From assembly GCA_963726295.1 (NCBI GenBank), contig CAVSBW010000009.1, positions 629 to 64,628 of the forward strand: a stretch of 64,000 nt of DNA. The letters run 5' to 3'. This document shows positions 4,754 through 52,082 of the stretch, piece by piece (the first letter of the stretch is position 1; the number at the start of each line of letters is the position of its first letter). Below the pieces are notes generated by a model. The model was not told the origin of the DNA, searched no databases, and worked only from the letters and a program-made list of their open reading frames with translations. The stretch is from an uncultured Actinomycetota bacterium. GTDB lineage: Bacteria > Actinomycetota > Actinomycetes > Actinomycetales > Dermatophilaceae. The position numbers and the translations under genes are program-made.

Positions 4754-4754
4754 C

Positions 4755-5450: not shown

Positions 5451-5466
5451 CGCCAGCTCCTCGTCC

Positions 5467-14348: not shown

Positions 14349-14359
14349 GCCCGGCCGCC

Positions 14360-32225: not shown

Positions 32226-33634
32226 GGGACCTACGGGCGTCCGCCCCCACCGGGTTCCGCGCGTTCGGAGTCCTGTGGGTGGGCCAGCTCGCCTCCCTGA
32301 CGGGCTCGGGGCTGACCGGCTTCGCCCTCGGCGTGCACGCCTACCGGCTCACCGGGTCGGTGACGACCCTCAGCCTCGTATACGCCCTCGCCTTCGTCCC
32401 GTTCGTGCTCGCGGCCCCCTTCGCCGGTGCTGTCATCGACCGGTGGGGGCCGCGACGGGCCATGACGGTCGGCACGGGAGGGGCGGCCGTGGTGATGCTC
32501 CTCTTCGCGGTGGTTCTCACCACCGGGGCCTTCGCCCTCTGGCAGGTCTACGTGCTCGTCTCCTGCCTCGCCCTGGCCCAGTCGCTGGAGACCCCGGCGC
32601 TCGAGACGGCCGTGCCGGCCCTCGTGCCGAAGCGGCAGATCGGTCGGGCCAACGGCCTGCTCATGCTGGCCGTCGCGGCCAGCCGGCTGCTCGCGCCGGT
32701 GGTCGCGGGGCTCCTGCTCGTGGCGATCGAGCTGCCGGGCATCGTCCTCGTCGACTGTGCCTCCTACGTGCTCGCCCTGCTGGGTCTGGCCGTCGTCCGG
32801 ATCCCGCGCCCCGCCGGCCCGCCCGGGGCCGAGCGGCCGAGGGGTCCGGCAGGCCTGGCCCGTAACCTGCGCACGGCATGGCGGTTCGTCGCCGGACGGC
32901 ACGGGCTCGTCGTCCTCCTCGCCTTCTCGGCCGTCGTCAACTTCTGCGGCGGCGTGGTCCAGCTGATGATCACACCCCTCGTCCTGGCCTTCGGGTCGGC
33001 GGTGACCCTCGGCACGGTGTTGTCGTCCGCTGGCATCGGTATGGTCGCGGCCGGCCTCGGCATGAGCGCATGGGGCGGGCCGCGGCGCCGGGTGGCCGCC
33101 GTCCTCGGCTTCGCAGTCCTCATGGGCGCCGCCATGGTGGCCGGCAGCCTGCGCCCCGACCCCGTCCTCATCGGCGCGGCGGCGTTCGTGGTCCTCGGCA
33201 GCTCGGCGGTCGTCATGGCCTGCAACCAGGCGATCTGGCAGGTCAAGGTCGCCCCCGAGCTGCGCGGCAGGGTCATCGCGCTGCTCACGATGACCTTCTC
33301 GGCCCCGCCGCTGGTCGCCTACGCGGTGGCCGGCCCGGCTGCCGATCACGTCTTCGTCCCGCTCGTGGGTCGCAATGACGTCACGAACCCGGTGCTGCGG
33401 GTCCTCGTGGGCACCGGACCGGGCAGGGGCTACGCGTTGGTCGTGATGGTCATGGGCGCGGCCATCGTCCTGTGCGTCCTCGCCGCCGCGCTCTCCCCCA
33501 GGCTCCGGCACCTCGACACCGAGATGCCCGACATGATCACCGACCCCGGCGCCGACGACGGCGTCGACGACGAGCCGGAGGTGCACGCCTGGCGGGTCCC
33601 GGCGACCGCCCCGGCGGAACGGGTGCCCTCATGA
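32222..33634 (+). CDS. MFS transporter (EntS-like exporter type)
   Basis: From ATG 32222 (MRDLRASAPTGFRAFGVLWVGQLAS...VIDRWGPRR...). About 12 hydrophobic helices. ATGA overlap with the previous gene. Confidence 0.8.
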   Translation: MRDLRASAPTGFRAFGVLWVGQLASLTGSGLTGFALGVHAYRLTGSVTTLSLVYALAFVPFVLAAPFAGAVIDRWGPRRAMTVGTGGAAVVMLLFAVVLTTGAFALWQVYVLVSCLALAQSLETPALETAVPALVPKRQIGRANGLLMLAVAASRLLAPVVAGLLLVAIELPGIVLVDCASYVLALLGLAVVRIPRPAGPPGAERPRGPAGLARNLRTAWRFVAGRHGLVVLLAFSAVVNFCGGVVQLMITPLVLAFGSAVTLGTVLSSAGIGMVAAGLGMSAWGGPRRRVAAVLGFAVLMGAAMVAGSLRPDPVLIGAAAFVVLGSSAVVMACNQAIWQVKVAPELRGRVIALLTMTFSAPPLVAYAVAGPAADHVFVPLVGRNDVTNPVLRVLVGTGPGRGYALVVMVMGAAIVLCVLAAALSPRLRHLDTEMPDMITDPGADDGVDDEPEVHAWRVPATAPAERVPS

Positions 33635-36081
33635 CCACCGTCGACCCAGTCCTCAACGCCGTCCCCGGCGCGAACCACGAGAACGCGGTGCCCGTGCGTC
33701 TCGGGTCGCGGGTCGCCGGGGCGCTGCGCGAGCTCGCGACGGACACGGGCGCCCCGCTCGACGCCGCCGTCGTGGCCGGGGTGCAGGTGCTCCTGGCGCG
33801 GCTCCGCGGGACGCCGGAGGTCGTGGTCGGCCTCCCCCTGCCCTGCTCCCCGGCGGCCTTCCCCGTCCGCGGCGACCTCTCCGACGGTCCGGTATACCGA
33901 GAGCTGGTGGGCCGCGTGGCGGCCACCCTCGCGGAGGCCGGGAGCCACGCCGGAGACCTCGACGCGCTGGGGGCGGACCTGAAGGAGGCGTCCGGCGGCC
34001 GGCCGGAGCCCGACGCGGTTGTCGAGCTGCTGCGTCCAGGGGCCTCCGGCGCCGGTTCCACGCTGGCCAAGGCCGATGCGGCCTGGCGACTGACCCTCAG
34101 CGACGGCACACCCGACCTCTCCGGCGAGCTGCGCACGGGCAGCGCGCACCCCGACGAGACCGCCCGGGTCGCCGCGATGCTCGAGCACCTGATCGGCGAG
34201 CTCGTCGCCGCCCCCGGGCGCAAGGTCCTGTCCGTGTCGCCGGTCCCTCCCACGGAGCGCACGCGGCTCCTCCATGGCCTGAACCCGGCACGGGACCCGG
34301 AACCGACCCACGTGACGATGGCCCAGCTGTTCGAGGAGCAGGTGCGCCGTACGCCCGACGCAACGGCGGTCGTCGACGAAAACGACGACCGGCTCACCTA
34401 CGCCGAGCTCAACGTCCGCGCGAACCGGCTCGCACACGAGCTCCGCGCTCTCGGTGCCCGCCCGGGTGGTTTCGTCGCGGTCACCATGCCCCGCAGCATC
34501 GACGTGATGGTGGCGCTCTACGCGGTCACGAAGTCCGGCGCGGCCTACGTACCGGTCGACCCGGACCTCCCCGACTCCCGGATGCAGTTCATGCTCGAGG
34601 ACTCGGCCCCGCTCGCGGTGCTCACCGACGCCGGTACCCGGCCCCGGGTCCCAGCGGGCCGGTGGCAGACCCTCGCGGTCGACGCGGACGCCACCCGGTG
34701 GGCCAGCCGCCCCGCGGAGGACCCACCACCCCTGGAGGGGAACCACCTCATCCACCTGCTGTACACGTCCGGGACGACCGGACGGCCCAAGGCCGTCGCG
34801 TACCCCGTCGACGGGGCGCTGGCCGACATCGCGTGGCTGCACCGGTCCTACCCGTACGGCCCGGGCGATACCGCCCTGTTCAAGACGTCGTACGGTTTCG
34901 ACGTCTCCATCTGGGAGATCTTCTGGCCGCTCTTCCACGGCGCTCGCGTCGCCATCTGCCCACCGGAGGCCCATCGCGACCCCGCCGCGCTCCGCGACGC
35001 CGTGGACCGCTTCCGGGTCACGACCATGTTCATGGTCCCGTCCATGGCGGCCCCGTTCTACTCGTGCACGTCGGCGGGCAGCTGTCCGTCGCTCCGCTGG
35101 GTCTTCTGCGGCGGCGAGGCGGTGACGCCGCGGGTCCGCGACGGCTTCCACGAGCGCTTCTCGGCGCGGATCATCAACTGCTACGGCCCGACCGAGCTCG
35201 GCTGCGTCACCGAGACGGTGCTCCCCGTGGAGCCCGGAGCCCCGGTCCCGGTCGGTCCACCGGTCGAACACCGCCGCGTGTACGTTCTCGACGAATGGCT
35301 GGAGCCGGTTCCCGTCGGGGTGCCGGCCGAGCTGTACGTCGGGGGCCGGGTCGGAATCGCGCAGAGCTACCACCGTCGCCCCGGACTGACCGCCGAGCGG
35401 TTCCCGGCGGACCCGTTCGGAGCCCCCGGCTCCCGTATGTACCGGACGGGCGACCTCGTCCGCTACCGGGCTGACGGAGTACTCGAGCACCTCGGCCGCA
35501 TCGGCCGGCAGGTCAAGATCCGCGGCGTGCGCATCGAACCAGCCGAGATCGAGGCCGTCCTCGCCGAGCACCCGGACGTCGCGCAGTCCGTCGTGACGGT
35601 GATACCCGACACCGACGGCGAGATTGCGGCCTTCGTCGTTCCGGCCGACGGAGCACGGCCGTCGGCCGAGGAGCTGCTCTCGCAGGGCCGTCGGCTGCTC
35701 CCGGCACACATGGTGCCGACGACCGTGACCGTCCTGGACGCCGTCCCGACGCTGGTCAACGGCAAGACCGACGTCGAGACGCTGCTCACCCTGATCGACC
35801 GCGGTGCGCCGTCCGGTCGAACCGGGGTCGAGCCCCCCGCCACCGCCACCGAGGCGCGCACCGTGGCCCTGTTCGCCTCCGTCCTCCAGCTCGACGAGGT
35901 GGGCGCCACCGACGGGTTCTTCGAGCTCGGCGGCCACTCGCTGCTCGTCTTCCGGCTCGTCGAGCTGTGCGGTGCCGAGTTCGGGGTCGACCTCGCGGTC
36001 CGGGACGTCCTGCGCACGCTGACCCCGCGCGGTCTCGCCACGCTCGTCGACGCCCACCCCGACACGGAGGGGGCCCGATGA
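33631..36081 (+). CDS. NRPS, (C-domain remnant)-A-T
   Basis: From ATG 33631 (MTTVDPVLNAV), with ATGA overlap to the MFS gene. A: LIHLLYTSGTTGRPKAV, NCYGPTELG, YRTGDLVRYRADGVLEHLGRIGRQVKIRGVRIEPAEIE, VNGKTD. T: FFELGGHSLLVFRL. The first ~250 aa have no HHxxxD. Confidence 0.85.
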   Translation: MTTVDPVLNAVPGANHENAVPVRLGSRVAGALRELATDTGAPLDAAVVAGVQVLLARLRGTPEVVVGLPLPCSPAAFPVRGDLSDGPVYRELVGRVAATLAEAGSHAGDLDALGADLKEASGGRPEPDAVVELLRPGASGAGSTLAKADAAWRLTLSDGTPDLSGELRTGSAHPDETARVAAMLEHLIGELVAAPGRKVLSVSPVPPTERTRLLHGLNPARDPEPTHVTMAQLFEEQVRRTPDATAVVDENDDRLTYAELNVRANRLAHELRALGARPGGFVAVTMPRSIDVMVALYAVTKSGAAYVPVDPDLPDSRMQFMLEDSAPLAVLTDAGTRPRVPAGRWQTLAVDADATRWASRPAEDPPPLEGNHLIHLLYTSGTTGRPKAVAYPVDGALADIAWLHRSYPYGPGDTALFKTSYGFDVSIWEIFWPLFHGARVAICPPEAHRDPAALRDAVDRFRVTTMFMVPSMAAPFYSCTSAGSCPSLRWVFCGGEAVTPRVRDGFHERFSARIINCYGPTELGCVTETVLPVEPGAPVPVGPPVEHRRVYVLDEWLEPVPVGVPAELYVGGRVGIAQSYHRRPGLTAERFPADPFGAPGSRMYRTGDLVRYRADGVLEHLGRIGRQVKIRGVRIEPAEIEAVLAEHPDVAQSVVTVIPDTDGEIAAFVVPADGARPSAEELLSQGRRLLPAHMVPTTVTVLDAVPTLVNGKTDVETLLTLIDRGAPSGRTGVEPPATATEARTVALFASVLQLDEVGATDGFFELGGHSLLVFRLVELCGAEFGVDLAVRDVLRTLTPRGLATLVDAHPDTEGAR

Positions 36082-37331
36082 GCGCCTCCACGACGACCCC
36101 GGCGACCCGCCCCGACGTGGACCTCGCCGACCTCGACCAGGTCCTCGCCCTCGACCTCGCCGACCCCGCCCTCTACGCCACCGACCGTCCCGAGCGAATC
36201 TGGCGCACGATGCGGCGGTCGGGGACCCCCGTGCTCGTCACCGCCCGCCGACGACATTGGGCGGTCACGCGCTACCAGCAGGTCAGGGAGGTCCTGCGGC
36301 GCAGCGAGGTCCTGTCGTCCGAGCAGGGGATGCGGCTGGGTGAGAAGGCGTCGGACGTGGCCGCAGGGGCGGCCGCGGGTGGGCGGTCGGTCCTCGTCAG
36401 CGACGACCCCGCCCACGCCCGGGTGCGGCGGGTCCTCGAGCCGGCCTTCACCCCCAAGGCGGTCCGCCGCCTCGCCGAGGGCACTCGCGGCCTAGCCGAC
36501 CGGCTCGTCTCCGAGGCCATCGCCCGACCGTCTGTCGACTTCGTCGAGGCTCTCGTCGCCCCGCTGCTCACGACGGTCAGCTGCGACCTCGTCGGGGTTC
36601 CCGAGGCCGACCGCGAGGCGCTCGCGCGACTGAGCCAACGAGCCTTCTGCGGCTCCGGCGATGCGACCGCGTCGACCCAGATCTCCGCGCACGTCGAGTT
36701 GCTCGCCTACTGCGACGAGCTCGTGCTCGCCAAGCGCCGCCGGCCGGGCGACGACGTCGCGAGCATCCTCGCGACCGCGCAGGTCGACGGCGCCCCGATT
36801 CCCCGGAGCGCGGCCGTGATGAACTGCCACGACCTCATCCTCGGCGGCAACGCCTCCGCCCGGTACGCGCTCACCAGCGTCCCGCTGACCATGCTCCACC
36901 AGCGGCCGTTCTGGGACACCCTCCGCGCCGGCGGGGCCGATGTCGATGCGGCGGTGCGGGAGCTGCTGCGCTGCGAGGCCCCCGTGAACCACATCATGCG
37001 CACCCTCCTGGACGACCTGGAGGTGGGTGGTGTGCGGATCCCACGCGGCGAGCTCGTCACCCTGTGGCTGCGTTCGGCCAACCGCGACGAGGAGGTGTTC
37101 GCGCACCCGGACGAGATGCGCCTCGACCTCCCGCGCCGGGCGCACCTGGCCTTCGGGGCCGGGCCCCACCACTGCCTCGCGGCGAACCTCGCGCGTCTGG
37201 AGATCTCCGCGCTGCTCTGTGCGCTGGCCGACCGGGTCGGCGACGTCGAGCCGACCGGTCCGGCGGTCCGGATGGAGTCGGACTTCCTCCGCGGCTACCG
37301 GGAGGTGCCGGTCTCGCTCTCCCCGCGTTGA
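36078..37331 (+). CDS. Cytochrome P450
   Basis: From ATG 36078, with ATGA overlap to the A-T NRPS. ExxR: ELLRCEAPV. Heme loop: FGAGPHHCLAANLARLE. Confidence 0.85.
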   Translation: MSASTTTPATRPDVDLADLDQVLALDLADPALYATDRPERIWRTMRRSGTPVLVTARRRHWAVTRYQQVREVLRRSEVLSSEQGMRLGEKASDVAAGAAAGGRSVLVSDDPAHARVRRVLEPAFTPKAVRRLAEGTRGLADRLVSEAIARPSVDFVEALVAPLLTTVSCDLVGVPEADREALARLSQRAFCGSGDATASTQISAHVELLAYCDELVLAKRRRPGDDVASILATAQVDGAPIPRSAAVMNCHDLILGGNASARYALTSVPLTMLHQRPFWDTLRAGGADVDAAVRELLRCEAPVNHIMRTLLDDLEVGGVRIPRGELVTLWLRSANRDEEVFAHPDEMRLDLPRRAHLAFGAGPHHCLAANLARLEISALLCALADRVGDVEPTGPAVRMESDFLRGYREVPVSLSPR

Positions 37332-38050
37332 GGGGGGCCGGCCAGCAGGCCGATCAGCTCCGCGGGCGCGTCGATGAAACGGCTGTGCCGACCCGGGAAC
37401 ACCGTGAAGGTCGTGTCGGGGCAGGCCGACCAACCCTGCATCTGCGCCGGCGTGATCTCGGTGTCCTCGCTCCAGCCCAGCGCCGTCACCGGGCACGGGA
37501 GCGCGGCGGGCTCCGAGGGGACGTAGCGGCGGATCATGTCGAGGTCAGCCTGGAGGATGTCGACGTAGATGGCGACGAGCTCCGGGTGCGGCTGCTGGCC
37601 CATGTCGCGGACCACCTTCTCGAGCTCCACCTCGAGCGCGGCGTCGTCCATGTCGAGCATCCGCGCGATCATCTCGTCCTGCGGCGCGAGCTGGGACGAC
37701 GCGACGATGCGCACCGGCGGGGGCAGGCCCCGTCTGTGCATCTCGAAGGCCATCTCGTAGGCGGCCAGCGCCGCCCAGCAGTGCCCGAAGACCGTGACGG
37801 GGACGTCGAGGTGGGGGGCGAGCCCGTCGACGAGACCGACCGCCAGCTCCTGGAAGGTCTCAGGCATCCGGTCGCCGAAGCGGGACAGCCGGCCAGGGAG
37901 GTCGACCGCGAGGAACTCGACCGGGCCCCGCTCGACGGGCCAGTTGCGGAACACGCTGACGCCGCACCCCGCATGCGGGATGCACAGCACCCGCGCGGTC
38001 GCGGACGCGGACGGCGGACGCTGCAGCCAGGCCGTCGCCGCCCCGGTCAC
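37295..38050 (-). CDS. Type II thioesterase-like alpha/beta hydrolase with Cys in the nucleophile position
   Basis: 251-aa ORF (GTG start). Motifs: VLCIPHAGCGVSVF, and VFGHCWAALAAYE where canonical TEIIs have GHSxG. GTGA overlap with the PhzF-like gene. Its 3' end overlaps the P450 3' end by 37 nt (convergent). Confidence 0.7.
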   Translation of the reverse strand: MTGAATAWLQRPPSASATARVLCIPHAGCGVSVFRNWPVERGPVEFLAVDLPGRLSRFGDRMPETFQELAVGLVDGLAPHLDVPVTVFGHCWAALAAYEMAFEMHRRGLPPPVRIVASSQLAPQDEMIARMLDMDDAALEVELEKVVRDMGQQPHPELVAIYVDILQADLDMIRRYVPSEPAALPCPVTALGWSEDTEITPAQMQGWSACPDTTFTVFPGRHSRFIDAPAELIGLLAGPPQRGESETGTSR

Positions 38051-38889
38051 GTCCGGACCCCCGCGGAGGCGGGGCGCGCCGCGTCGGCTCGTACCCCTGG
38101 CCGGTCGAGGTGGCGGGGTCCGCCGCGCGGCACGGCACTGCCGATGACCCGCACGAGATCGCCCCGGGCCTCCACCTCGAGCCGTCCCCCGCGCTCCGAG
38201 AGCTGACGCGCGGTGAGCGCCGCCCGGCCCAGCCGGTCGGCCCAGAAGGGCGCCAGCTTGCCGTGGGCGCTGACGCAGACCTGGTCCTCGGTCACGCCGA
38301 GCGCCGGGAAGAACGTGCGAGAGACGAAGTCGGTGCCGGTGCCGCCCGCGGCCGTGACGATGTGACCACGGAACGGCAGGCGAGCGAGGGCGTCGAAGTC
38401 CGGACGCACCGCCGCGACCGCGTCCGGGGTCGCGACCTCGACGAGGACGTCGTCGTGCGAGGTCGCACAGCAGCGGTGATCAGTGAGGCCCAGAGCCTCC
38501 AGCAGCCCGGGAGGAGGCGGCCCGGGGGTGAGGGCCGCCGCGTCCAGCTCGATGGCGACGAGGGGGCCCACCCGTTCCGCCGCGAGGACCCCCTCGCCGC
38601 CGTCGAACACCAGCCGGACCCGCCCGGTGTTCTCCGGGCGGGTGAACAGCACGCGCGCACTCGCGATGGTCGCGTGCCCGCAGACGTTGATCCGGGCGTG
38701 CGGGGTGTACCAGCGCACCCGGTAGCGGCCCGCGCCCGCCTCCGACACGAAGGCGGTCGTCGGAACGCCGATGCGGCGGGCAAGGTCCTGCATCTCGTCC
38801 GGTTCGGGCAGCTCCGGGACCTCGACGACCGCCGCCGGGTTCCCGAGGTGCTCGTCGTCGGCGAAGGCGTCAACGAGGGAATACTGCAT
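38047..38889 (-). CDS. PhzF-family isomerase-like protein
   Basis: In-frame part of ORF 38047..39090 from ATG 38889: MQYSLVDAFADDEHLGNPAAVVEV...TTAFV...RWYTP...INVCGHATIA... is the typical PhzF/YddE pattern. Confidence 0.75.
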   Translation of the reverse strand: MQYSLVDAFADDEHLGNPAAVVEVPELPEPDEMQDLARRIGVPTTAFVSEAGAGRYRVRWYTPHARINVCGHATIASARVLFTRPENTGRVRLVFDGGEGVLAAERVGPLVAIELDAAALTPGPPPPGLLEALGLTDHRCCATSHDDVLVEVATPDAVAAVRPDFDALARLPFRGHIVTAAGGTGTDFVSRTFFPALGVTEDQVCVSAHGKLAPFWADRLGRAALTARQLSERGGRLEVEARGDLVRVIGSAVPRGGPRHLDRPGVRADAARPASAGVRT

Positions 38890-40027
38890 CGGCGCGCCTC
38901 TCCTGCTTTGGGTCCCAGGAACGGAAGAGCGCGTCGATGGCCGACGCCATGCCCCACACCTCCCGGTAGGTGGGGCCCTCGGGGCCCTCGTCGATGTCCC
39001 TCTGGCGAGCGTAGGCGGCCGTCGTCCACTCCGGGGTCGAGGGATAGCGGTGGTGGTGGTCGTGGTTGGGGAGGTCGCCCACCACGACAAGCAGCCGCGC
39101 CGGCACGTGGTAGGAGAGCGTCGCCGCCCACCAGCGCACCCAGGCCGTCGTGCGCCGAGCGAACGGGAGCCCGCGGTCCGGCACCGGGGACCCGCAGAAC
39201 CGGGCCGAGGTGTTCGCCACGGTGTAGTACCGGCCGAGCTCCGGGTCGCGGGGGGCCAGCCACTCGTGCTCGCCGAGCCGGTCGAGCAAGGCGCTCAGCT
39301 GCGCGAACATGACGACCGGCACGAAGAAGGCGAGCACGAGCACGAGCACGCCGTTCGGGAGCCAGAAGGGCAGGGATAGCCACCAGCCGACCCAGACGAG
39401 GAACGCGAGCCGGCGGACCGGGCTCGCTCGCACGTTGCTCCGCACCCGGTCGACGAGACCGCGCCAGTAGAACACCGGCGACAGGAAGACCACCCAGGCG
39501 CGCCGCCACAGACCGCCCCGGGACATGCCGGGATGAAGCCCGAGGTCGAAGAGGAACTGCACGGGAGGGTCGTCCTCGGTCGCGAAGATGTCCCGCCGGT
39601 GGTGGTTGTCGAAGTGCTCGGTTCGGAAGTCCCGGAAGGTGTGGAAAACGCTGAGCACCGTCACCGCCTCGCCCCAGAAGGCGTCGCGCGGAGCCCGCCC
39701 CGAGAAGCGGCGGTGCAACGCCTGGTGGGCGATGACGAGGACCATCATGCGCTCGCCGGCGACCGTGAGCACCCACCCCACGAGCAGCGCGAGGTACCAG
39801 AAGGGGAACATCGTCGCGACGGCGACCGTCGACAGGGCGAGGCCGCCGACGAACAGGGCCACCACCACCGCGAGGTACGACGCCCAGGTGTGGCGCAGCA
39901 GCGGCTCCTGGCCCGGCAGTGCCTTCCCGGTCTGCCAGGTCCAGAAGTGCTGCGTCCACCCCGGGAAGCGCCGGTAGGTGGCACGGACGTCCCTGACGGG
40001 AACCATCGCCTCCTCGCCCGGGGTCAT
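38870..40027 (-). CDS. Membrane fatty-acid-desaturase-family diiron protein
   Basis: In-frame part of ORF 38870..40579 from ATG 40027. Three His boxes (HQALH, HFDNHH, HDHHH) separated by hydrophobic helices. ATGA overlap with the upstream gene. Confidence 0.7.
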   Translation of the reverse strand: MTPGEEAMVPVRDVRATYRRFPGWTQHFWTWQTGKALPGQEPLLRHTWASYLAVVVALFVGGLALSTVAVATMFPFWYLALLVGWVLTVAGERMMVLVIAHQALHRRFSGRAPRDAFWGEAVTVLSVFHTFRDFRTEHFDNHHRRDIFATEDDPPVQFLFDLGLHPGMSRGGLWRRAWVVFLSPVFYWRGLVDRVRSNVRASPVRRLAFLVWVGWWLSLPFWLPNGVLVLVLAFFVPVVMFAQLSALLDRLGEHEWLAPRDPELGRYYTVANTSARFCGSPVPDRGLPFARRTTAWVRWWAATLSYHVPARLLVVVGDLPNHDHHHRYPSTPEWTTAAYARQRDIDEGPEGPTYREVWGMASAIDALFRSWDPKQERRADAVFPR

Positions 40028-40716
40028 CGTGCCGTCGCCGGCGCCCTGACGTCGGACTCGATCGCGAGCCGGTCGAAGAACGCCGTCCAGAGCCGCCACA
40101 TCTCGTCCGCGGCCTTGAGCACCGTCTCCTCCTGCTGCTCGGAGAACTCGGAGGTCAGGGCGTTCTTGGCCTGCTCGACGTGGTCCGGCTCCTGTCGGAG
40201 GTGGATCGCGACCCACTCGTTGTCCTCGACCTCCGTGGCGCGGGCCACGGCCTTCCCGATGCTCGACACCATGAGCAGGTCCGTGGTCTCGGTCGCGAAG
40301 ATCGAGCCGAGGGCGGTCTCCCGGGTGTCCGTGGACACCCGGTACCCCTCGACGAGTGCGGCGGTCTCCGGGTAGGGCTCCGCGGTGCGGATCTGCTCCG
40401 GGTCGAACCCGCACCGGGCCATGGAGTCGAGGTAGATCACCTCGTGGGCCCGGCCGACGTTCCCACCGCCCGCCTCCTGGTTCAGGATCCGTGAGATCGC
40501 GCTCTGGGAGGCGATGTCGGGGAGTACCGCGATGGAGCGGGCGAGGAAGGTCGGGAAGTAGTGCAGCGGGTGCCACCACTGGTCGATGAGCACCGACGCC
40601 TGTTCCTTCGAGAGGTCGATGCTGTCGACGGAGTCGAAGAACCGGTGGTTGCAGAACTCGGTGAAGACCGGGCTCGTGGCGAGCCGCTCGTCGAACGACA
40701 CGTTTGTGGTTGACAT
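40024..40716 (-). CDS. Heme-oxygenase-like diiron (HDO) family protein
   Basis: 230-aa ORF with a GAAGGAG RBS. NHRFFDS...LSKEQASVLIDQWWHPLHYF, QEAGGGNVGRAHEVIY and IHLRQEPDHVEQA match the E/H ligand spacing of the PqqC/CADD/UndA-like helical family as I recall it. Confidence 0.6.
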   Translation of the reverse strand: MSTTNVSFDERLATSPVFTEFCNHRFFDSVDSIDLSKEQASVLIDQWWHPLHYFPTFLARSIAVLPDIASQSAISRILNQEAGGGNVGRAHEVIYLDSMARCGFDPEQIRTAEPYPETAALVEGYRVSTDTRETALGSIFATETTDLLMVSSIGKAVARATEVEDNEWVAIHLRQEPDHVEQAKNALTSEFSEQQEETVLKAADEMWRLWTAFFDRLAIESDVRAPATAR

Positions 40717-40749
40717 CTTTCGCTCCTTCGGATGGGCGGGTGGTTCCGG

Positions 40750-41640
40750 TCAGGTTGACGGGGAGGACACGGGGCTGAAGGGCACACCCCAGGCGTTCTC
40801 GGTGCGCATCCGGTTGTGCCCGTGGGCGTCCTCACCGGCGACGAGCACGCAGCCGTGCCGGTCGAGGTCAAAGTGGTGCCCGAACTCGTCGAACTCCGTC
40901 ATGCCCCCGTACACGCGCACGTGGGTGGGCACGGTGCGGATCGCGTAGCCCATGCGCTGGCGGTTGCTCGTGTTCGGGTTCGAGCCGTGGATCGTGCGCG
41001 CCGTGAAGATGATGAACTGGCCCGGGCGCATCTCGACGTGGTCGACATGCTCGTCGTCGGGGTCCCAGTCCGGGTCGATCTTGATGTCCTCGTAGTTGTA
41101 GCCGAAGAAGGCGTTGTCCCGTGCCCGACCATTCCAGCTCATCCGCGCATGCTCGTCGTAGCGCCACTGGCGGTGGCTGCCCGGGATGAGCCTCATGCAG
41201 CCGTTCTCCCGAGTGGCCTCCGTGAACGCCACCCAGCAGGTGAGCTCCATCGGGGTCTCCGGAGACTGCTCGGTCGCCTCGAGCATCCCCTCGCTCGTCT
41301 CGCCGATGGCGTAGGTCTCGACCTGGTGCCACCCGGTTCCGGAGTCACCCGGGTTCTTCGGGAAGAACTCGGTGCGCCAGCAGACGATGTCGTCCCCGAT
41401 CAGGGCCTGCATGCGGCGGACGATCTCCGGCTGGGTGATCAGCTCACCGAGTCCCGTGACGTCGAGGTGACGGTCGTAGTTCATCGGGTTGTCGAAGACC
41501 TTCGCCTCGTCGTTGGTCGGGTCGAGAAGGGCCTTGCGCTGCACCTTCCACCACGCAGTCATCTCCTCCGGCTCCCAGAGCGTGAAGGGTCCGATGTAGC
41601 CGCGCTCCGCGAAGGTGCGGCGGTCTGCGTCAAGATCCAT
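40750..41640 (-). CDS. SyrB2/CmaB-family Fe(II)/2-oxoglutarate enzyme, divergent paralogue with HxV motif
   Basis: In-frame part of ORF 40750..41685 from ATG 41640 (MDLDADRRTFAERGYIGPF...). Motifs: NYDRHLD, CWRTEFFPKNPGDSGTGWHQVETY, CWVAFTEATRENGCMRLIPGSH, GQFIIFTARTIHGS. Clearly homologous to the gene at 50845..51798. Confidence 0.8.
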   Translation of the reverse strand: MDLDADRRTFAERGYIGPFTLWEPEEMTAWWKVQRKALLDPTNDEAKVFDNPMNYDRHLDVTGLGELITQPEIVRRMQALIGDDIVCWRTEFFPKNPGDSGTGWHQVETYAIGETSEGMLEATEQSPETPMELTCWVAFTEATRENGCMRLIPGSHRQWRYDEHARMSWNGRARDNAFFGYNYEDIKIDPDWDPDDEHVDHVEMRPGQFIIFTARTIHGSNPNTSNRQRMGYAIRTVPTHVRVYGGMTEFDEFGHHFDLDRHGCVLVAGEDAHGHNRMRTENAWGVPFSPVSSPST

Positions 41641-44245
41641 CGAGGGCACCCGCTGTCTCCGTTCCTGAGTTTTCGAGGGCCGCATCGAGACGGGCCGCGA
41701 GGTCCGCCACGTCGGGCTCGTGCATGACGCTGTGGTGGTCCCCGGCGACGGGGACGGTCGTGAACGGCCCGGTGCAGAGGCCGCGCAGTGCCTCGGCCAA
41801 CCGGGCCTGCCGGCCGGGGTCGGACCCGGCCGGCTGGAAGAGGGTGACCGGCCCGCCGTAGGGCCGGGGCGTGTAGCGCATCGCCGCGTCCATGCAGGCC
41901 CGGGCCCGGAGGAGCACGGTGCGCAGGTAGTCCGTCGGCGTCCCTCCGGTGAGCGGGGCGCCCATGAGCTGGGTCCACACCCGGCCGCTCGTGAGCTCGA
42001 CGACGTCGTCGGGAGAGCAGGTCGGGTCGTCCAGCCGCGACAGGACGCCGTCGAGCATCTCCCGGAAGGGCGTCTCCGCCATGGGCAGCCCGGTCAGCGG
42101 GTCGACCAGGGGATTCGCGTCGACCATCCCCAGCAGGTCCACGGTCACCCCGGCGTCCCGGAGCTGTCGGGCGACCTCGTAGGCGAGGACCCCCCCGAAC
42201 GACCAGCCCGCAAGGAGGTACGGCCCGTCGGGCCGCGCGGCCCGCAGCTGCTCGACGTGGGTACGGGCCAGCTCCTCGAGCGAGGTGCCTCGCGGGACGG
42301 GCCCGGTCCGGGCGACCCCGAGCAACCGGTACGGGGCGCGTGACGCGCGGGCGAGCGCACGGTAGGCGATCGGCTCCCCGCCGAGCGGGTGCAGCAGGTG
42401 GAGGCTGCGGACGGACGGTCCAGGCCGCAGTGTCATGACTGCTGAGCACCTGGCCCGCCCCTCGGCGCGGGCGCCCTGCTCCGCGAGGGCGCCGACGAGC
42501 CCGGAGACGGTGCTGTCGTCGAGGAAGACCGAGAGCCCGAGCGTGCTGCCGAGTTCCTGGGCCATCTCCGCGACCACCCACGTGGCGAGCAGCGAGTCCC
42601 CGCCGATGTCGAAGAAGTCGTCGTGGGCGTCGAACTCGTCGTGCCCGAGGACCCGGCGCCAGATGGCGGTGACGGTGTCGGCCAGAGACGTGCCGGCCCC
42701 GGACGGTCCGGCCTCCGGCAGCTCCAGGGCAGCCAGGGCCTGCGCGTCCACCTTGCCGGAGGAGGTGCGTGGCAACGAGTCGACAAGGACGAACCGCGCG
42801 GGCACCAGGTGCTCCGGTACGAGCCCGCGCAGGTGGTCGACCAGCTCGCGGTGGGGGGCCGGGCCCCGCGTCTGGAGGTAGCCGACGAGGCCCGGCACTC
42901 CCGGGGCGAGGTCGCGCAGCCCGACCGCGGCCGCCTCGACCTGAGGATGGTGTAGTAGGGCACCCTCGACCTCCGCGGGCTCCACCCGGAACCCGCGGAC
43001 CTTGAGCTGTCGGTCGTCACGGCCGAGGAACTCCAGGCCCTGCGATCCCGCGCGGACGAGGTCACCGGTCCGGTAGAGCCGTGTCCCGCTCCCCGTGGGA
43101 TCGGCGACGAAGCGTGTGGCGGTCTGCGCCGCGTCGCCCACGTAGCCGCGGGCCAGACCGGAGCCTCCGAGGTAGAGCTCGCCGACCTCGCCGTCACCGA
43201 CCGCCGCCATCCGCTCGTCGAGCACGGCGCACGTGACCCCGGCCACGGGTGCCCCGATCGGCGGCGCCGCAGGCCACTCCCCCGTCCCGCCGGCGAGGGT
43301 GAAGCGCGTCGCGAGGTGGGCCTCGGTCGGTCCGTAGTGGTTGTCGAGGCGACATTGCGGGAGGGCGCCGAACAGTGCCCGGATCGCGGGTGTCGCGACG
43401 AGGCGCTCACCGGCGGTCACGACGTGGCGCAGCGACGACGGCCACAGGGCGCGGCGCCGAGCGGCGGCGGCGAGGAGCTGCAGCGCGACGTACGGCAGGA
43501 AGAGGCGTTCGGCGTGCTGATCGACGACGAGGTCGAGGAGGGCGTCCGGGTCGCGACGGACCCGCTCCGGGGCGAGCACGAGGGTTCCGCCGGTGGACAC
43601 GGTGGAGAGCACCTCCTGGAACGTCACGTCGAACGAGGTCGCTGTGAACTGCACGGTGCGCAGCCCGCGCGGCCCGTCCGCGACCTGCCAGCCGATGAGC
43701 CGGTCGAGGCCCCGATGGGTCATGCCGACCGCCTTCGGCCGGCCGGTCGACCCCGAGGTGTGCAGCACGTAGGCCAGCGAGTCGGGGGCGGGAGGCGCCG
43801 GGTGGTCCGGGCCCGCGACATCGGGTCCCCGCGGGTCGACCACCTGCGCGGCGGCCACCGGGGCCTCGCCGCCGCCGACCACCACGCGGACGCCGAGCCG
43901 CTCCAGGGCGGCGGCCGTCCGCTCGGGGGGAGCGCCCTCGTCGATCGGGCAGTAGGCGCCCCCGGCGAGGAGAATGCCGAGCATCGCGACGACGCCGTCG
44001 ACGGAACGGTCCGACACGGCGGCCACGACCTCGTCCTGCGACACCCCGGCCGTCCGCAGGCGTGCGGCCAGGCCTTCGACCCGCCGGAGGAGCTCGCCGT
44101 AGGTGGCCGGCCGCCCGGGGGCCGTCGGGTCGACGACGGCGGGCTCGTCGGGATGGGTCCGGGCATGCTCGGTGAGGGCGGCGTGCCAGGACCAACCCGG
44201 GGCGGGGGCCCCCGTGGGGGGGGTCATGGTCTGGGTCACTGTCAT
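41630..44245 (-). CDS. NRPS, A-T-TE (stand-alone loading/release tridomain)
   Basis: In-frame part of ORF 41630..44776 from ATG 44245 (MTVTQTMTPP). A: [74 protein letters not shown]: FFDIGGDSLLATWV. TE: LLAGWSFGG. Confidence 0.85.
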   Translation of the reverse strand: MTVTQTMTPPTGAPAPGWSWHAALTEHARTHPDEPAVVDPTAPGRPATYGELLRRVEGLAARLRTAGVSQDEVVAAVSDRSVDGVVAMLGILLAGGAYCPIDEGAPPERTAAALERLGVRVVVGGGEAPVAAAQVVDPRGPDVAGPDHPAPPAPDSLAYVLHTSGSTGRPKAVGMTHRGLDRLIGWQVADGPRGLRTVQFTATSFDVTFQEVLSTVSTGGTLVLAPERVRRDPDALLDLVVDQHAERLFLPYVALQLLAAAARRRALWPSSLRHVVTAGERLVATPAIRALFGALPQCRLDNHYGPTEAHLATRFTLAGGTGEWPAAPPIGAPVAGVTCAVLDERMAAVGDGEVGELYLGGSGLARGYVGDAAQTATRFVADPTGSGTRLYRTGDLVRAGSQGLEFLGRDDRQLKVRGFRVEPAEVEGALLHHPQVEAAAVGLRDLAPGVPGLVGYLQTRGPAPHRELVDHLRGLVPEHLVPARFVLVDSLPRTSSGKVDAQALAALELPEAGPSGAGTSLADTVTAIWRRVLGHDEFDAHDDFFDIGGDSLLATWVVAEMAQELGSTLGLSVFLDDSTVSGLVGALAEQGARAEGRARCSAVMTLRPGPSVRSLHLLHPLGGEPIAYRALARASRAPYRLLGVARTGPVPRGTSLEELARTHVEQLRAARPDGPYLLAGWSFGGVLAYEVARQLRDAGVTVDLLGMVDANPLVDPLTGLPMAETPFREMLDGVLSRLDDPTCSPDDVVELTSGRVWTQLMGAPLTGGTPTDYLRTVLLRARACMDAAMRYTPRPYGGPVTLFQPAGSDPGRQARLAEALRGLCTGPFTTVPVAGDHHSVMHEPDVADLAARLDAALENSGTETAGALDGS

Positions 44246-44479
44246 CCCTCGGCCGTCGGAGGCTCGTGTCTGCTGTCGGCGGGACCGCGCCACACGGTGT
44301 GCGACAACCAGGTCCGCGACCCACAGTAGGAGCGGCCGCCCCCGGGCCGTCGTCACGTGAATCGGCCACGGCACGACGGAGCACGCCGACCCTGTCCGGC
44401 GTATCGGGGACAGGACCCCGCGGACACGAACCCCTTGACTTGGGGCCCTAGCTCTCGGACACCCAGCAGGGAAGACGCC

Positions 44480-45022
44480 ATGGACACGCTCACCGCTCGC
44501 CCGACCGCGCCGGCCGAACCGGACTGCATCGGTCCGATCGCCATCGCACCACGGCTCGCCCACGAGCTCGAGGTGCTCGCCGCCGGCGCGGCCGCCGACG
44601 ACCTCGCCCCGTTCGTGGTCTGCGCATCCGAGTTGTTGCTGCGCTGGTCGCGGGGCGGCACGCCGAGGTGTGCCCGCGTGATCCGGGGCCGTCACGAGGC
44701 GTTCGCACATCCCGTCGCCCCGACGGGGACGACCCCGGACCGGGCCCACCTGAGCTTCCGGGACGCTCTGGTCCACCTGGCCGCCCGGCCGGCCGAGGAG
44801 GTGGACCCGGCAGACCTGGCCGATGTCACGATCCTCATCTCCTCCGACGGTGAGCGGATGTACCTCGAGCGCACGACCACCGGGGCCGGTGGCCCCTGCC
44901 TCGGGTCTTGGGCCGACACCTACCTCGGCCTGCTCGGCACCCTCGCGGAACGTCCGGACGCCCCCCAGATCACCCGCCCCGGCACCCCAGGGGACGGCGT
45001 GACGGTGTTGGCGGCCTCGTGA
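44480..45022 (+). CDS. Small protein resembling the C-terminal part of a condensation domain (possible remnant or docking protein)
   Basis: In-frame part of ORF 44357..45022 from ATG 44480. No HHxxxD. The tail resembles the region that precedes A domains in NRPSs. GTGA overlap with the next NRPS (45019-45022). Confidence 0.35.
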   Translation: MDTLTARPTAPAEPDCIGPIAIAPRLAHELEVLAAGAAADDLAPFVVCASELLLRWSRGGTPRCARVIRGRHEAFAHPVAPTGTTPDRAHLSFRDALVHLAARPAEEVDPADLADVTILISSDGERMYLERTTTGAGGPCLGSWADTYLGLLGTLAERPDAPQITRPGTPGDGVTVLAAS

Positions 45023-48000
45023 CGGCGACGCGTACCGACCCCGACGTCACGGTGACGGTGGGCTCCGCCGACGGTGGTCCGGAGGAGGACCGGACCGTCC
45101 CCGGGCTCATCCTGGCCCGGGCCCGCCGACGGCCCCGTGCCGTCGCCGTCGAGGCGGTGGACGGACGCCTCACCTACGGCTCGCTCGTCGACCGCGCGGG
45201 GGCGGTCGCTCGCCACCTCCGAGCCCTGGGGATCTCGGGCGGTGACGTCGTCGCCGTGGATGTCGAGCGCACCATCGACCTCGTGCCCGCACTGCTCGGC
45301 GTGCAGCTGAGCGGGGCCGCCTACCTTCCCCTGGACCCCGGCCACCCGAGGGAGCGGGTCGAGAGCATCCTGGCCGACACGAGGACGGCCGTGCTGCTCA
45401 CGGACGACGCCCACCGCTCGCCCCCGGGGGCCGGACGCACGGTCCCGATGTCGCAGATCCACCCCGCGGAAGGGACCGACGGCCTCGGCGCGTCCCCGGA
45501 CGCAGCGGCCTACGTCATCCACACCTCGGGGTCGACCGGCCGTCCGAAGGGCGTCATGGTCGGCCACCGGGCCCTGACCAACCTCATCCTGTCCCTGCGT
45601 GACCTGTTCGGGCTCCCGGAGGACTGCGTGCTGCCCGCCGTGACGACGGTCTCCTTCGACATCGCCGGGCTCGAGCTGTTCCTCCCCCTGACCGGAGGCG
45701 GAACCGTCGTCCTCGGCGAACCCGCCGATGCCCGTGACCCGCACCGCCTCACGGCCCTTGTCGAGCGGGCTGGGGCCTCGGTGCTCCAGGCCACCCCCAC
45801 CTCCTGGCGCCTGCTCCTCGCGGCCGGCTGGCAGCCGCCGCCGGGCTTCACTGTCCTCTGCGGTGGGGAGCGGCTCCCCTCCGACGTCGCCGACGACCTC
45901 CTCACCGACGCCACGGTCCTGTGGGACCTGTACGGACCGACCGAGACGACGATCTGGTCCGCCGTCACCCGGTACGAGAGGGGCACCACCCCACGGTTCC
46001 ATCCCGTACGCGGAACCTCCCTCGTCGTGCTCGACGGCGCGCTGGACCCGGTCCCCGACGGCTCCCCCGGGGAGCTCTACATCGGGGGCCCCGGACTGGC
46101 CGAGGGCTACCTCGGCCGGCCCGGCGCCACCGCCGGCCGCTTCATCGCGCACCCGTGGTCCCACGGCGCGCGGTTGTACCGCACGGGTGACCTCGCACGG
46201 CGGCTCCCCGACGGCCGCACCGAGATCCTCGGACGGACCGACGACCAGGTGAAGATCCGCGGCTTCCGCGTGGAGCCGGGAGAGATCGAGGCCGCTCTGG
46301 TGCGGCACCCGGGGGTGGCCTCCGCCGCGGTGGCGGCCGAGCAGACGGACCACGGGGCCCGGCTCGTCGCGCACGTTTGCGCGTCCGACCCCGCCGATCA
46401 CCCGGACGAGGGCACGCTGCGCCGCCACCTGGGGCAGCGCCTCCCGGAGTACATGGTGCCCGCAGAGTTCCGCGCCGTCGAACGGCTGCCGACCACCCCC
46501 AATGGGAAGCTCGACCGGGCGGCCCTCGCCGCCCCGGATGGCCGGCGCTCCGGCGCGCCGGTGGCGGCCCCGCGCTCCCCCGCGTCCGCCCCGCCCGCCG
46601 CGGACGACAAGGGGTCACCGGGACCGGGCAGCGAGGTCGTCGTCGCCCGGGTCCTGGCGGAGGCCCTGGACCGCGACCACGTCGGCGTGCACGACGACTT
46701 CTTCTCGCTCGGTGGCGACTCGCTGCGCGCGGTGCAGGCGATCCTCCGGCTCAACGCCGAGCTGGGAACCGAGCTGCCGGTCAACACGCTCTTCGAGATG
46801 CGCACCGGGTACGGGCTCGCGCGCCTCGTCGACGGCGACATCGTCCCCGAGCCGACGCTGGAGGCCCTCCCGAAGGCCCAGCCGCACCAGCTCTCGGCGG
46901 CCCAGTGGCGGCTGTTGCTGCACCAGACGCACGCCCCGGAGAGCGTCCTGCACAACCGGGCCCTCGCGCTCCGGGTACCGGACGACGTCGACGTCGACGC
47001 CGTGCGGGACGCCGTCGACGGCCTCGTGGCCCGGCACGGGACGTTGCGGACCCGCTATGTGGTGGACGCGGCCGGCCTGCCGCGCCCGGTCCTCGAGGAA
47101 CCCGGCCGGACGCCGGTGACGCTCGTGGACGCCGACCCGGCCGCCACACTCGCTGACGAGCTGTCGCGCCCCTTCGACCTCGCTGGGTCGGTGCCGGTCC
47201 GCGCGCGGGTGGTCCGAGGGCCCGACGGCGGGAGCTACGTCGTGCTCACCGTCCACGAGATTGCTGCAGACCACCGCTCGCGGGCCCTCCTCGTGCGACA
47301 GCTGCGGGCCGCTTTCCGTGGCCATCCGGTCCCCGACCCGCCCTTCGACTACGTGGACTATGCCGCGTGGCAGCGCGAGCTGGCGGGCGGGCCGAACACG
47401 CAACGTCACCTGGACTACTGGCGCGCCACGCTCGCCGGGCTCGACCCTGCCGACCTGCGGACCGACCGGCCGCGCCCGTCGCGACGCGTCCGCAGCGCCG
47501 GCGCCGTGCGCTTCTCCCTCCCGCGCGAGGTCGTGGCCGGGACCCACGACCTCGCCGCCGACCATGACGCGCCCCTGGCGGTCGGTCTCCTCGCCGGGCT
47601 CGTCGCGGTGCTCGACCGGTACACGACCGGCTCGGACGTCACCGTCGGGGTCCACACCGACGGGGCCGAGCACCCGGACCTCGAGCAGATGGTCGGGGCG
47701 TTCGAGAGCACGGTGCCGCTGAGGGTCCGGACGGCCGACGCCGACGCCCCCGGGCAGCTGCTCGGCCGGGTGCGGGAGGCGGCGATCAGTGCGCTCGGTC
47801 ACGCCAGCCCGCCGCTGGAGGACGTCGTCTCGGCAACGGTCGGCTGCGTCGCACCGTCCGCGCCCGGCCGGAATCCCCTCTTCGACGTCTCCTTCGCACT
47901 CCGTGCCCCCACGGGGCTCAGCGACCTCGACGTCCCGCCGTGCGCCGAGGCCGCGGTCGACCTGCACTGCGAGCTGACCGAGCTGCCTGACGGCGGCGTC

Positions 48001-48147
48001 GACGGCCATTTCCACTACGCCAAGGCCCTCTTCGACGAGACGACGGTGCGCGGCATGGCCGACGAGATGGTCCGCCACCTGACCCGCGTCGCGGCCGAGC
48101 ACCGTCCTCCCCCCGCCCCGTTCGACCCGACAAGGAGATCATCGTGA
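45019..48147 (+). CDS. NRPS, A-T-C* (terminal C domain has HExxxD)
   Basis: From GTG 45019 (VTATRTDPDV). A: [78 protein letters not shown]: FFSLGGDSLRAVQAI. C: LSAAQWRLLL, TVHEIAADHRS. Confidence 0.85.
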   Translation: MTATRTDPDVTVTVGSADGGPEEDRTVPGLILARARRRPRAVAVEAVDGRLTYGSLVDRAGAVARHLRALGISGGDVVAVDVERTIDLVPALLGVQLSGAAYLPLDPGHPRERVESILADTRTAVLLTDDAHRSPPGAGRTVPMSQIHPAEGTDGLGASPDAAAYVIHTSGSTGRPKGVMVGHRALTNLILSLRDLFGLPEDCVLPAVTTVSFDIAGLELFLPLTGGGTVVLGEPADARDPHRLTALVERAGASVLQATPTSWRLLLAAGWQPPPGFTVLCGGERLPSDVADDLLTDATVLWDLYGPTETTIWSAVTRYERGTTPRFHPVRGTSLVVLDGALDPVPDGSPGELYIGGPGLAEGYLGRPGATAGRFIAHPWSHGARLYRTGDLARRLPDGRTEILGRTDDQVKIRGFRVEPGEIEAALVRHPGVASAAVAAEQTDHGARLVAHVCASDPADHPDEGTLRRHLGQRLPEYMVPAEFRAVERLPTTPNGKLDRAALAAPDGRRSGAPVAAPRSPASAPPAADDKGSPGPGSEVVVARVLAEALDRDHVGVHDDFFSLGGDSLRAVQAILRLNAELGTELPVNTLFEMRTGYGLARLVDGDIVPEPTLEALPKAQPHQLSAAQWRLLLHQTHAPESVLHNRALALRVPDDVDVDAVRDAVDGLVARHGTLRTRYVVDAAGLPRPVLEEPGRTPVTLVDADPAATLADELSRPFDLAGSVPVRARVVRGPDGGSYVVLTVHEIAADHRSRALLVRQLRAAFRGHPVPDPPFDYVDYAAWQRELAGGPNTQRHLDYWRATLAGLDPADLRTDRPRPSRRVRSAGAVRFSLPREVVAGTHDLAADHDAPLAVGLLAGLVAVLDRYTTGSDVTVGVHTDGAEHPDLEQMVGAFESTVPLRVRTADADAPGQLLGRVREAAISALGHASPPLEDVVSATVGCVAPSAPGRNPLFDVSFALRAPTGLSDLDVPPCAEAAVDLHCELTELPDGGVDGHFHYAKALFDETTVRGMADEMVRHLTRVAAEHRPPPAPFDPTRRSS

Positions 48148-50835: not shown

Positions 50836-50844
50836 GCCGGCGGC

Positions 50845-52058: not shown

Positions 52059-52082
52059 GATGTCGCCTCCTGTCGTGCTGGT

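Follow-up and report, generated by a model that had tools for sequence, protein, structure and literature searches.

Background

Cassettes that tailor amino acids on a carrier for non-ribosomal peptide synthetases (NRPSs) have in the past been a source of new reactions, such as radical chlorination and cyclopropanation by cryptic halogenation. Among the closest described systems are those for dichloroaminobutyrate (CytC1-C4), 4-chlorothreonine (SyrB1/SyrB2/SyrC) and coronamic acid (CmaA/B/C/D/E/T). In these, the amino acid is loaded on a dedicated thiolation (T) domain and attacked by a PhyH-fold enzyme that requires iron and 2-oxoglutarate (Fe/2OG) and has a 2-His site, after which it is released by a thioesterase (TE) or moved by a Cys-dependent alpha/beta-hydrolase. 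CytC3 and SyrB2 act only on carrier-tethered amino acids, and SyrB2, CytC3, CmaB and KthP all attack gamma-type carbons of these. Here we describe an operon of six genes, g1 to g6 (37295-44245, minus strand), from a 64,000-nucleotide stretch of DNA (the window) of an uncultured Actinomycetota bacterium of the family Dermatophilaceae (assembly GCA_963726295.1, contig CAVSBW010000009.1, positions 629 to 64,628). It combines a loader and an enzyme of this kind with three further putative tailoring enzymes and a Cys-type thioesterase-fold protein, and is a candidate for a proline-tailoring cassette that feeds an NRPS.

The operon resembles the Cyt, Syr and Cma systems in having a dedicated T domain for loading, and in placing the gene for the PhyH-fold enzyme directly after that for the protein with the adenylation (A) and T domains; release by a TE or transfer by a Cys-dependent enzyme would likewise be comparable. 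In contrast to them, it has an A domain with a proline-type code and Val in place of Ala at the halide site of the PhyH-fold enzyme. Its candidate transferase belongs to the type II thioesterase (TEII) family (PF00975), whereas those of the Syr and Cma systems are of the SyrC/CmaE type. Its heme-oxygenase-like diiron oxidase/oxygenase (HDO), membrane diiron protein and PhzF-fold protein have no counterparts in those systems.

Other described systems share individual components with the operon. Loaders of the NikP1/NikQ type have the A-T-TE order of g1, and in both cases trans-acting oxidative tailoring of the tethered aminoacyl group is assumed. However, NikP1 loads histidine, which is tailored by a P450, whereas g1 has a proline-type code and is accompanied by four other tailoring enzymes. 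The BesD/BesC, HrmI/HrmJ and BelK/BelL pairs, like the operon, bring together an Fe/2OG enzyme and an HDO in one pathway for a non-proteinogenic amino acid, but they act on free lysine, and BesD, unlike g2, is not of the SyrB2 type. The integral-membrane diiron fold with three His boxes is common to g4, the JamB/UndB-type enzymes and GntB, with very low similarity between them; the substrates of JamB are carrier-bound chains, and that of GntB is an amino acid. On-carrier tailoring of amino acids for NRPSs is accordingly a known kind of system, but the enzyme set found here appears to be new, and several of its features lie outside the definitions of the respective families.

Results and discussion

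The six-gene operon and its conserved core

The window is actinomycete-type DNA with 73% G+C, and a frame plot of third-position GC shows six consecutive minus-strand coding frames from 37295 to about 44250, with frame switches at the gene junctions. The six open reading frames have the expected start and stop codons and are free of internal stops. In the order of transcription they encode an A-T-TE tridomain protein (g1, 41630-44245, 871 aa), a carrier-dependent Fe/2OG enzyme of the SyrB2/CytC3 type (g2, 40750-41640, 296 aa), an HDO (g3, 40024-40716, 230 aa), an integral-membrane diiron protein resembling desaturases and hydroxylases (g4, 38870-40027, 385 aa), a PhzF-family protein of the DapF fold (g5, 38047-38889, 280 aa) and a TEII-fold protein with a Cys nucleophile (g6, 37295-38050, 251 aa). 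The end of g1 overlaps the start of g2 by 11 nt (41630-41640), g3 and g4 share an ATGA (40024-40027), g4 and g5 overlap by 20 nt (38870-38889), and g5 and g6 share a GTGA (38047-38050). The sole gap, of 33 nt (40717-40749), lies between g2 and g3, with a GAAGGAG ahead of the ATG of g3.

An independent gene call on the public assembly of the same DNA (L001) recovers the same six genes and differs solely in two starts, with g1 beginning at 44239 (869 aa) and g2 at 41649, which gives a 20-nt overlap. A scan for promoters and terminators gave no signals inside the operon, though such a scan is uninformative in DNA of 73% G+C. The six genes are a real operon, and we infer their co-transcription from translational coupling and synteny. 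Pfam and NCBIfam searches back the family call for every protein, and all the Pfam matches lie above the curated cut-offs. An earlier note on this DNA, made from the sequence alone, had described six head-to-tail genes with these overlaps and this gap, and had assigned the six families, including PF14518, FA_desaturase and PhzF; both the junctions and the assignments read as it gave them.

The operon has a wide distribution. When one genome per species was scanned with a profile for relatives of g4, 46 loci were obtained, and in 33 of these tblastn shows the genes for the A-T-TE, SyrB2-like, HDO, desaturase-like and PhzF-like proteins to be collinear and in the same orientation. The hosts span about ten actinomycete genera and include Streptomyces, Nocardia, Micromonospora, Pseudonocardia, Streptosporangium, Sphaerisporangium, Actinoplanes, Amycolatopsis, Spirillospora and Phytohabitans, along with several metagenome-assembled genomes (MAGs). 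The cassette also reaches two further phyla, with one Eremiobacterota MAG and one Caulobacterales MAG. Because the same gene order recurs in 33 other species-level genomes, the arrangement is far beyond chance. Around this core there is considerable variability: a g6-type thioesterase is found in 22 of the 33 loci, a gene for a Na+/H+-exchanger-like protein in many, and one for a proline-3-hydroxylase-like Fe/2OG enzyme, absent from the window, lies between g2 and g3 in 27. The surrounding NRPS genes also vary from locus to locus, and because they do so, the comparison points to the five-gene core being a portable building-block unit. The suggestion of the earlier note that the operon makes a non-proteinogenic residue gains a nameable substrate, most likely proline. 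The enzyme combination is not a one-off, as its five-gene core recurs widely.

A loader with a proline-type code

In g1 the Pfam domains follow the order AMP-binding (25-368), PP-binding (523-587) and Thioesterase (615-842). We read the specificity code of the A domain by alignment to a GrsA reference sequence, which returns the published code DAWTIAAICK along with the expected motif contexts. The code of g1 is DVQFVAHATK and that of most of its orthologues DVQFVAHVTK, both near the canonical proline code DVQLIAHVVK, with His322 included. A proline-like code is kept in every A-T-TE orthologue, and the substrate of g1 is most likely proline, as judged from the code. The TE domain has the nucleophile motif GWSFGG, which is present in all 37 A-T-TE sequences examined, and candidate Asp and His residues downstream, so that it is apparently active.

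A His-x-Val variant of the SyrB2-like enzymes

The protein g2 belongs to the PhyH family (PF05721, 1.8e-29), scores 310.7 bits against a cut-off of 226.3 with the NCBI 'chlorinating enzyme' model TIGR01762, and aligns end to end with CytC3 (2.1e-72) and SyrB2 (6.3e-65). As with these enzymes, the carboxylate of the facial triad is absent; however, where CytC3 and SyrB2 have WHQA(D), g2 has WHQVE, with Val in the position of Ala or Gly. This bears out the His-x-Val (HxV) site that the earlier note had pointed to. The motif is invariant in the 37 sequences examined, while the second His (TIHGSNP) and the Arg that binds 2-oxoglutarate (QRMGY) are kept both in the orthologues and in other HxV representatives. 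Fe/2OG halogenases have Gly or Ala at the halide-site position according to a 2025 review (PMC12006828), and g2 departs from this HxA/HxG pattern.

Of the 123 full-length SyrB2-like representatives from a search of 1.84 billion representative proteins, 8 carry Val in the halide-site position, most of them being mutual nearest neighbors. The HxV site is therefore not unique to the operon. The two HxV representatives that we looked up are encoded beside carrier proteins, in the absence of HDO, desaturase or PhzF genes, and the site seems to mark a broader, loose clade of carrier-associated enzymes. No characterized HxV member was found among the SyrB2-like representatives searched.

The window also holds a complete and separate cassette of the canonical 4-chlorothreonine type (49615-53645, minus strand), which consists of an A domain with the Thr code DFWNVGMVHK (52083-53645), a lone T domain (51795-52058), a halogenase with the WHQAD (HxA) motif of SyrB2 (50845-51798) and a SyrC/CmaE-like alpha/beta-hydrolase of 406 aa (49615-50835). 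Because this canonical WHQAD enzyme is present in the same window, the Val of g2 cannot be put down to lineage drift.

Two diiron enzymes and a PhzF-fold protein

The third protein, g3, matches PF14518 (1.5e-21). Six residues, E81, H91, E143, H172, E176 and H179, are invariant in 25 homologs and correspond to the described 3-His/3-carboxylate ligand set on core helices 1-3 (PMC13108848), with the ligand positions assigned by spacing. The AlphaFold2 model (predicted local distance difference test, pLDDT, 88.6) is all-helical and has the seven-helix heme-oxygenase fold; in Foldseek comparisons it matches CADD, BesC, PolF and UndA with template modeling (TM) scores of 0.75-0.80 and probability 1.00, at 14-21% identity. 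Because these four match about equally at such low identity, g3 counts as an HDO of its own subfamily. BesC is its best sequence match among solved structures, at about 21% identity; none of the four was retained as a specific model, all being equally distant. The analogy to BesD/BesC, HrmJ/HrmI and BelL/BelK drawn in the earlier note accordingly turns out to be loose, as g2 is of a carrier-dependent type and g3 is no closer to BesC than to PolF, CADD or UndA. A review of March 2026 lists about a dozen validated HDOs, none of them tied to an NRPS proline module (PMC13108848).

The membrane protein g4 matches FA_desaturase (PF00487, 2.5e-09; 37.7 bits against a cut-off of 29.7) and has two hydrophobic segments (52-99 and 226-244) and three invariant His boxes, HQALH, HFDNHH and HDHHH. 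Its best NCBIfam match is a weak one to the arginine hydroxylase GntB (28 bits against a cut-off of 380), and sequence searches against solved structures detected no relative. These features place g4 in the membrane desaturase/AlkB superfamily, at the superfamily level only. No other protein of the cassette is as strongly conserved as g4, with homologs at 60-81% identity across many actinomycete genera and in Paraburkholderia that form a tight clade of their own. Taken together, the alignments show a complete set of metal ligands, without variation, in each of g2, g3 and g4.

The fifth protein, g5, is a member of PF02567 (1.6e-42; 87 bits with TIGR00654 against a cut-off of 76.2), and among solved structures it matches 1s7j (7e-40) and, more distantly, PhzF itself (1.4e-15). 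With PhzF, the isomerase acting on trans-2,3-dihydro-3-hydroxyanthranilate, it shares the Pfam family, the fold and the equivalents of His74 and Asp208. However, its PTTAF motif aligns with SESTF/SETAF, which puts a Thr at the position of the catalytic Glu45 of PhzF; a Glu is found there in 1s7j and 4dun, the closest solved relatives, which themselves lack a known function. In an alignment of 38 g5-type sequences PTTAF is largely conserved, as are CGHAT and ED.VC.SAH.

A Cys-type thioesterase and its potential acceptor

The last protein, g6, matches PF00975 (4e-18) and RifR (1e-26). RifR-like TEIIs have a Ser nucleophile in a GxSxG motif, whereas g6 has GHCW, with the Cys aligned on Ser94 of RifR and the Asp and His of the triad also aligned. 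GHCW occurs in all 25 aligned g6-type sequences, and the Cys-Asp-His triad is invariant. A Cys nucleophile is likewise used by the SyrC/CmaE transferases. A potential acceptor is encoded at 28784-31384 (plus strand) by a module with Condensation, PP-binding and Methyltransf domains in Pfam but no AMP-binding domain. Orthologs of its condensation-thiolation (C-T) part, at 54-56% identity, are encoded directly beside g6 orthologs in five loci, as C-T-TE in Streptomyces chartreusis (L004, L005) and as C-T-C-T in three Streptosporangium loci (L027, L047, L055). Thus the operon and this module hold the gene set of an aminoacyl shuttle system, that is, an A-T donor (g1), a free-standing TEII fold (g6) and an A-less C-T module.

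Systems composed of a stand-alone A-T protein, a TEII-like shuttle and an A-less C-T module have a described example in WS9326A and a proposed one in rotihibin (PMC10510592, PMC8552735), and for LgnA of the legonmycin pathway the shuttling of aminoacyl groups has been shown by intact-protein mass spectrometry (PMC8748450). Like LgnA, WS5/WS20 and RthD, g6 is a free-standing TEII-fold protein found with a loader and an A-less C-T module; in contrast to these systems, the donor g1 carries a TE domain of its own. A further difference lies in the nucleophile, which is Ser77 in a GHSxG motif in LgnA (PMC8748450) and the Cys of GHCW in g6 and all its orthologs. Because a Cys nucleophile should favor transfer at the expense of hydrolysis, because the C-T orthologs are neighbors of g6 orthologs, and in light of the LgnA-type precedent, g6 is probably an aminoacyl shuttle to the A-less C-T module. 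The earlier note had called this protein a Cys-thioesterase; the Cys stands, but a shuttle is likelier than a release enzyme. In addition to g6, two SyrC-like hydrolases in the window are candidate transferases, making three in all.

A proposed pathway and its alternatives

Of the possible functions of the operon we favor, with about even confidence, that of a portable cassette which tailors proline on a carrier and feeds it to an NRPS. Under this proposal g1 would adenylate L-proline, or a very close imino acid, and hold it as a thioester on its T domain. The enzyme g2, translationally coupled to g1, would then attack an unactivated C-H bond of the tethered prolyl ring, most likely at C4, because SyrB2, CytC3, CmaB and KthP attack gamma-type carbons. 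The outcome could be chlorination or, given the Val in place of Ala or Gly, a non-halogenating hydroxylation or desaturation. Further two-electron oxidations, by desaturation, hydroxylation or N-oxygenation, might be the work of the soluble HDO g3 and the membrane protein g4, with the PhzF-fold protein g5 repositioning a double bond or a proton. Finally, g6 would hand the modified residue to the C-T-methyltransferase module at 28784-31384 or, alternatively, the TE domain of g1 would release or edit it. We infer the chemistry, the order of steps and the action of all four tailoring enzymes on the same tethered residue; the product would most likely be a residue derived from proline that is oxidized or unsaturated and may at some point carry chlorine.

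Several observations weigh against this proposal. Characterized HDOs mostly take free amino or fatty acids (PMC13108848), and GntB too takes a free substrate. In Actinoplanes sp. NPDC049316 (L040) the HDO-desaturase pair (9306-11089) lies between NRPS genes without the A-T-TE, SyrB2-like and PhzF genes, and a proline-type A domain is absent there. In Paraburkholderia (L002, L003) HDO, desaturase-like and PhzF genes are combined with those for a cupin and a Na+/H+ exchanger (NhaP) but with no A-T-TE or SyrB2-like gene (at 9262-12563 in L002), beside a Ser-Ser NRPS, and a Bradyrhizobium MAG has a desaturase-PhzF-NhaP set. Because the pair, with or without PhzF, is found without a proline loader, the substrate of g3 and g4 need not be tethered proline, and these enzymes may take another substrate or work on different carriers. 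That all six proteins act on one carrier-bound residue is to this extent not secure. These observations also speak for the HDO and desaturase-like proteins, with or without the PhzF-like one, being a separate unit that makes or modifies some other compound, for example an acyl starter or a free amino acid, and is merely co-located with g1 and g2. We consider this rather unlikely, given the strict collinearity and translational coupling with g1 and g2 in 33 species and the absence of any other carrier, ligase or obvious precursor enzyme from the operon. At the level of individual steps, an isomerase role for g5 is not assured, since Glu45 is absent; the role of g6 is ambiguous in view of the apparently active TE of g1, and g6 is missing from 11 of the 33 cassette loci. 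Moreover, in about eight to ten of the cassette loci a C domain is absent within 10 kb, and in about 24 an adjacent NRPS protein has a C domain at its end that is not followed by an A-T.

This last arrangement suggests that g1 could instead be the terminal module of a split NRPS, with a C-ended partner condensing onto prolyl-S-g1. In the window this partner would be the A(Gly)-T-C protein (45058-48147), encoded divergently from g1, or the C-A-T-C protein (14360-19021), tailoring would take place on the T-bound prolyl or peptidyl group, and the TE of g1 would release a short peptide, for example Gly-Pro*. In the closest relatives, too, the Gly A-T-C protein is found next to the cassette, and the Ser/Asp/His pattern of the TE is typical of chain-releasing domains. 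Against this, a C domain is absent within 10 kb in some eight to ten loci (L014, L015, L019, L021, L024, L026, L028 and L053), and g6 and the A-less C-T modules point to transfer away from g1. We regard a split NRPS as a tentative minority possibility, which can coexist with on-carrier tailoring; the identification of g1 as a NikP1-type loader in the earlier note thus holds for the domain order and the intact TE nucleophile but has this terminal-module role as a competitor.

As for g2, it could be a true cryptic chlorinase, generating 4-chloroprolyl-S-T that would be converted to dehydro- or bicyclic proline by g5-assisted elimination or intramolecular displacement, on the model of the CmaB/CmaC and KtzD/KtzA chemistry of coronamic acid; CmaB/CmaC are an established case of gamma-chlorination with carbanion chemistry after it. 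Its 2-His site without carboxylate and its score above the 'chlorinating enzyme' cut-off agree with this. However, halogenation by g2 is uncertain, as its invariant Val lies outside the Gly/Ala described for halogenases (PMC12006828), and a canonical HxA enzyme for threonine is retained in the same cluster; this also weighs on the favored proposal if its outcome is taken to be chlorination. With no CmaC- or KtzA-type partner at hand, and with g5 devoid of the known base of its family, we find a cryptic chlorinase improbable.

It is equally improbable, in our estimate, that the cassette has already been characterized in a paper or a MIBiG entry. The full-text literature searched omits most subscription journals, which leaves some room for this; within it, searches by family names, enzyme combinations, NCBI product names and the tag of the Catenulispora acidiphila homolog, Caci_3442, gave no description of this enzyme combination, in line with the earlier note, which had recognized it from no characterized pathway. 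All 240 listed homologs of g3 and g4 carry generic names only ('TenA family', 'PQQ biosynthesis protein C', 'fatty acid desaturase'). Two described systems with partial resemblance were set aside: the N-hydroxypyrrole pathway of chalkophomycin likewise has prolyl-carrier chemistry but relies on two flavoenzymes together with a heme N-oxygenase, which are of other families, and mangotoxin MboA/MboB pair an HDO with a flavin/Fe2S2 reductase on a tripeptide, without a membrane desaturase partner.

Implications of the cassette

The cassette combines four under-explored catalysts, namely a member of an HxV clade of SyrB2-like enzymes that departs from the accepted Gly/Ala rule, an HDO subfamily remote from the dozen or so that have been characterized, a membrane diiron enzyme in the context of amino acids and a PhzF-fold protein without the known base. 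Because the cassette is present in 33 of the scanned species, its product is probably a recurrent, still unrecognized residue in the peptides of actinomycetes. With proline as the predicted substrate, g1 as a defined carrier and a compact operon, the proposal is directly testable by intact-protein mass spectrometry, and a Cys-type TEII would extend the recently found 'shuttle' function of thioesterases. A more speculative scenario, which we see as a long shot, is that the HxV enzymes are a clade apart among carrier-dependent 2-His Fe/2OG enzymes, with an outcome that is not chlorination, that such an enzyme, a new HDO subfamily and the membrane diiron enzyme together yield an undescribed proline-derived peptide residue, and that the Cys-type TEII joins two residues where two loaded T domains occur without a C domain.

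Other genes in the window

The A(Gly)-T-C protein (45058-48147, plus strand), with the Gly code DILQLGLIWK, ends in a C domain with no A-T downstream; its orthologs (54-64% identity) are found beside the cassette in L007, L008, L010, L012 and L020, and also in L040, which has only the HDO-desaturase pair. Divergent from g1 is also a small open reading frame (44474-45022, plus strand, about 180 aa) with no Pfam family, which has high third-position GC, is called in L001 and, in a different frame, overlaps the start region of the gene for the Gly A-T-C protein. In 26 other loci the A-T-TE gene has beside it a divergently encoded stretch to which this reading frame is 33-50% identical; in L004, the locus checked, that stretch is the N-terminus of the A-T partner. 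We take it to be a conserved domain. We rejected its being a truncated C domain like that at the N-terminus of the protein encoded at 33631-36081, to which it has no similarity.

The latter protein (33631-36081, plus strand) has truncated C, A and T domains in that order, and its A domain has the code DVWFFGCVTK. A-T partners with the code DVWF[LFM]GCVxK, which among the published codes is nearest to that for Leu (DAWFLGNVVK), accompany the cassette in about 28 loci. Its N-terminal approximately 150 aa match only the C-terminal lobe of the C domain (positions 223-364 of the 440 of the model) and, lacking HHxxxDG, the region at 33631-34300 is a truncated and presumably inactive C domain. Downstream is a cytochrome P450 gene (36078-37331, plus strand; Pfam p450), convergent with g6 and overlapping it by 37 nt. 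Its orthologs (65-71% identity) occur only in cassette loci without the proline-3-hydroxylase-like gene (L007, L008, L012), which hints that the P450 may replace that enzyme.

The C-A-T-C protein (14360-19021, minus strand), whose code DVEEVGCVTK has acidic pocket residues, is encoded within a minus-strand group (12587-20154) with a flavin reductase, a luciferase-like monooxygenase and an aminotransferase; about nine cassette loci also have the monooxygenase, the C-A-T-C protein and the aminotransferase (51-78% identity). On the other side of the operon, 53757-54008 encodes a T domain on its own, 54071-55186 the second SyrC-like hydrolase and 55194-58400 a T-C-(degenerate A)-T protein, the last with orthologs (51-64% identity) in L004 and L040. 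The cluster depends heavily on loading in trans.

A C-A-T-C-A-T-TE synthetase (21443-28774, plus strand) has two modules that are 93.8% identical over 1041 aa, both with the Ser code DVWHFSLIDK. In contrast to the remainder of the window, its A domains have a high content of Thr, His and Pro; at the third codon position, 26001-28000 has 537 C against 98 G, and the GC skew falls to -0.46. This suggests that the duplication is recent and that the origin may be foreign. The Ser-Ser NRPS of Paraburkholderia was considered as an ortholog of this synthetase and rejected, the two being 38% identical. Outside the biosynthetic cluster, the beginning of the window (572-5979, minus strand) carries Tad/Flp-pilus-like genes, coding for two T2SSF proteins, a T2SSE ATPase and a SAF/RcpC-like protein.

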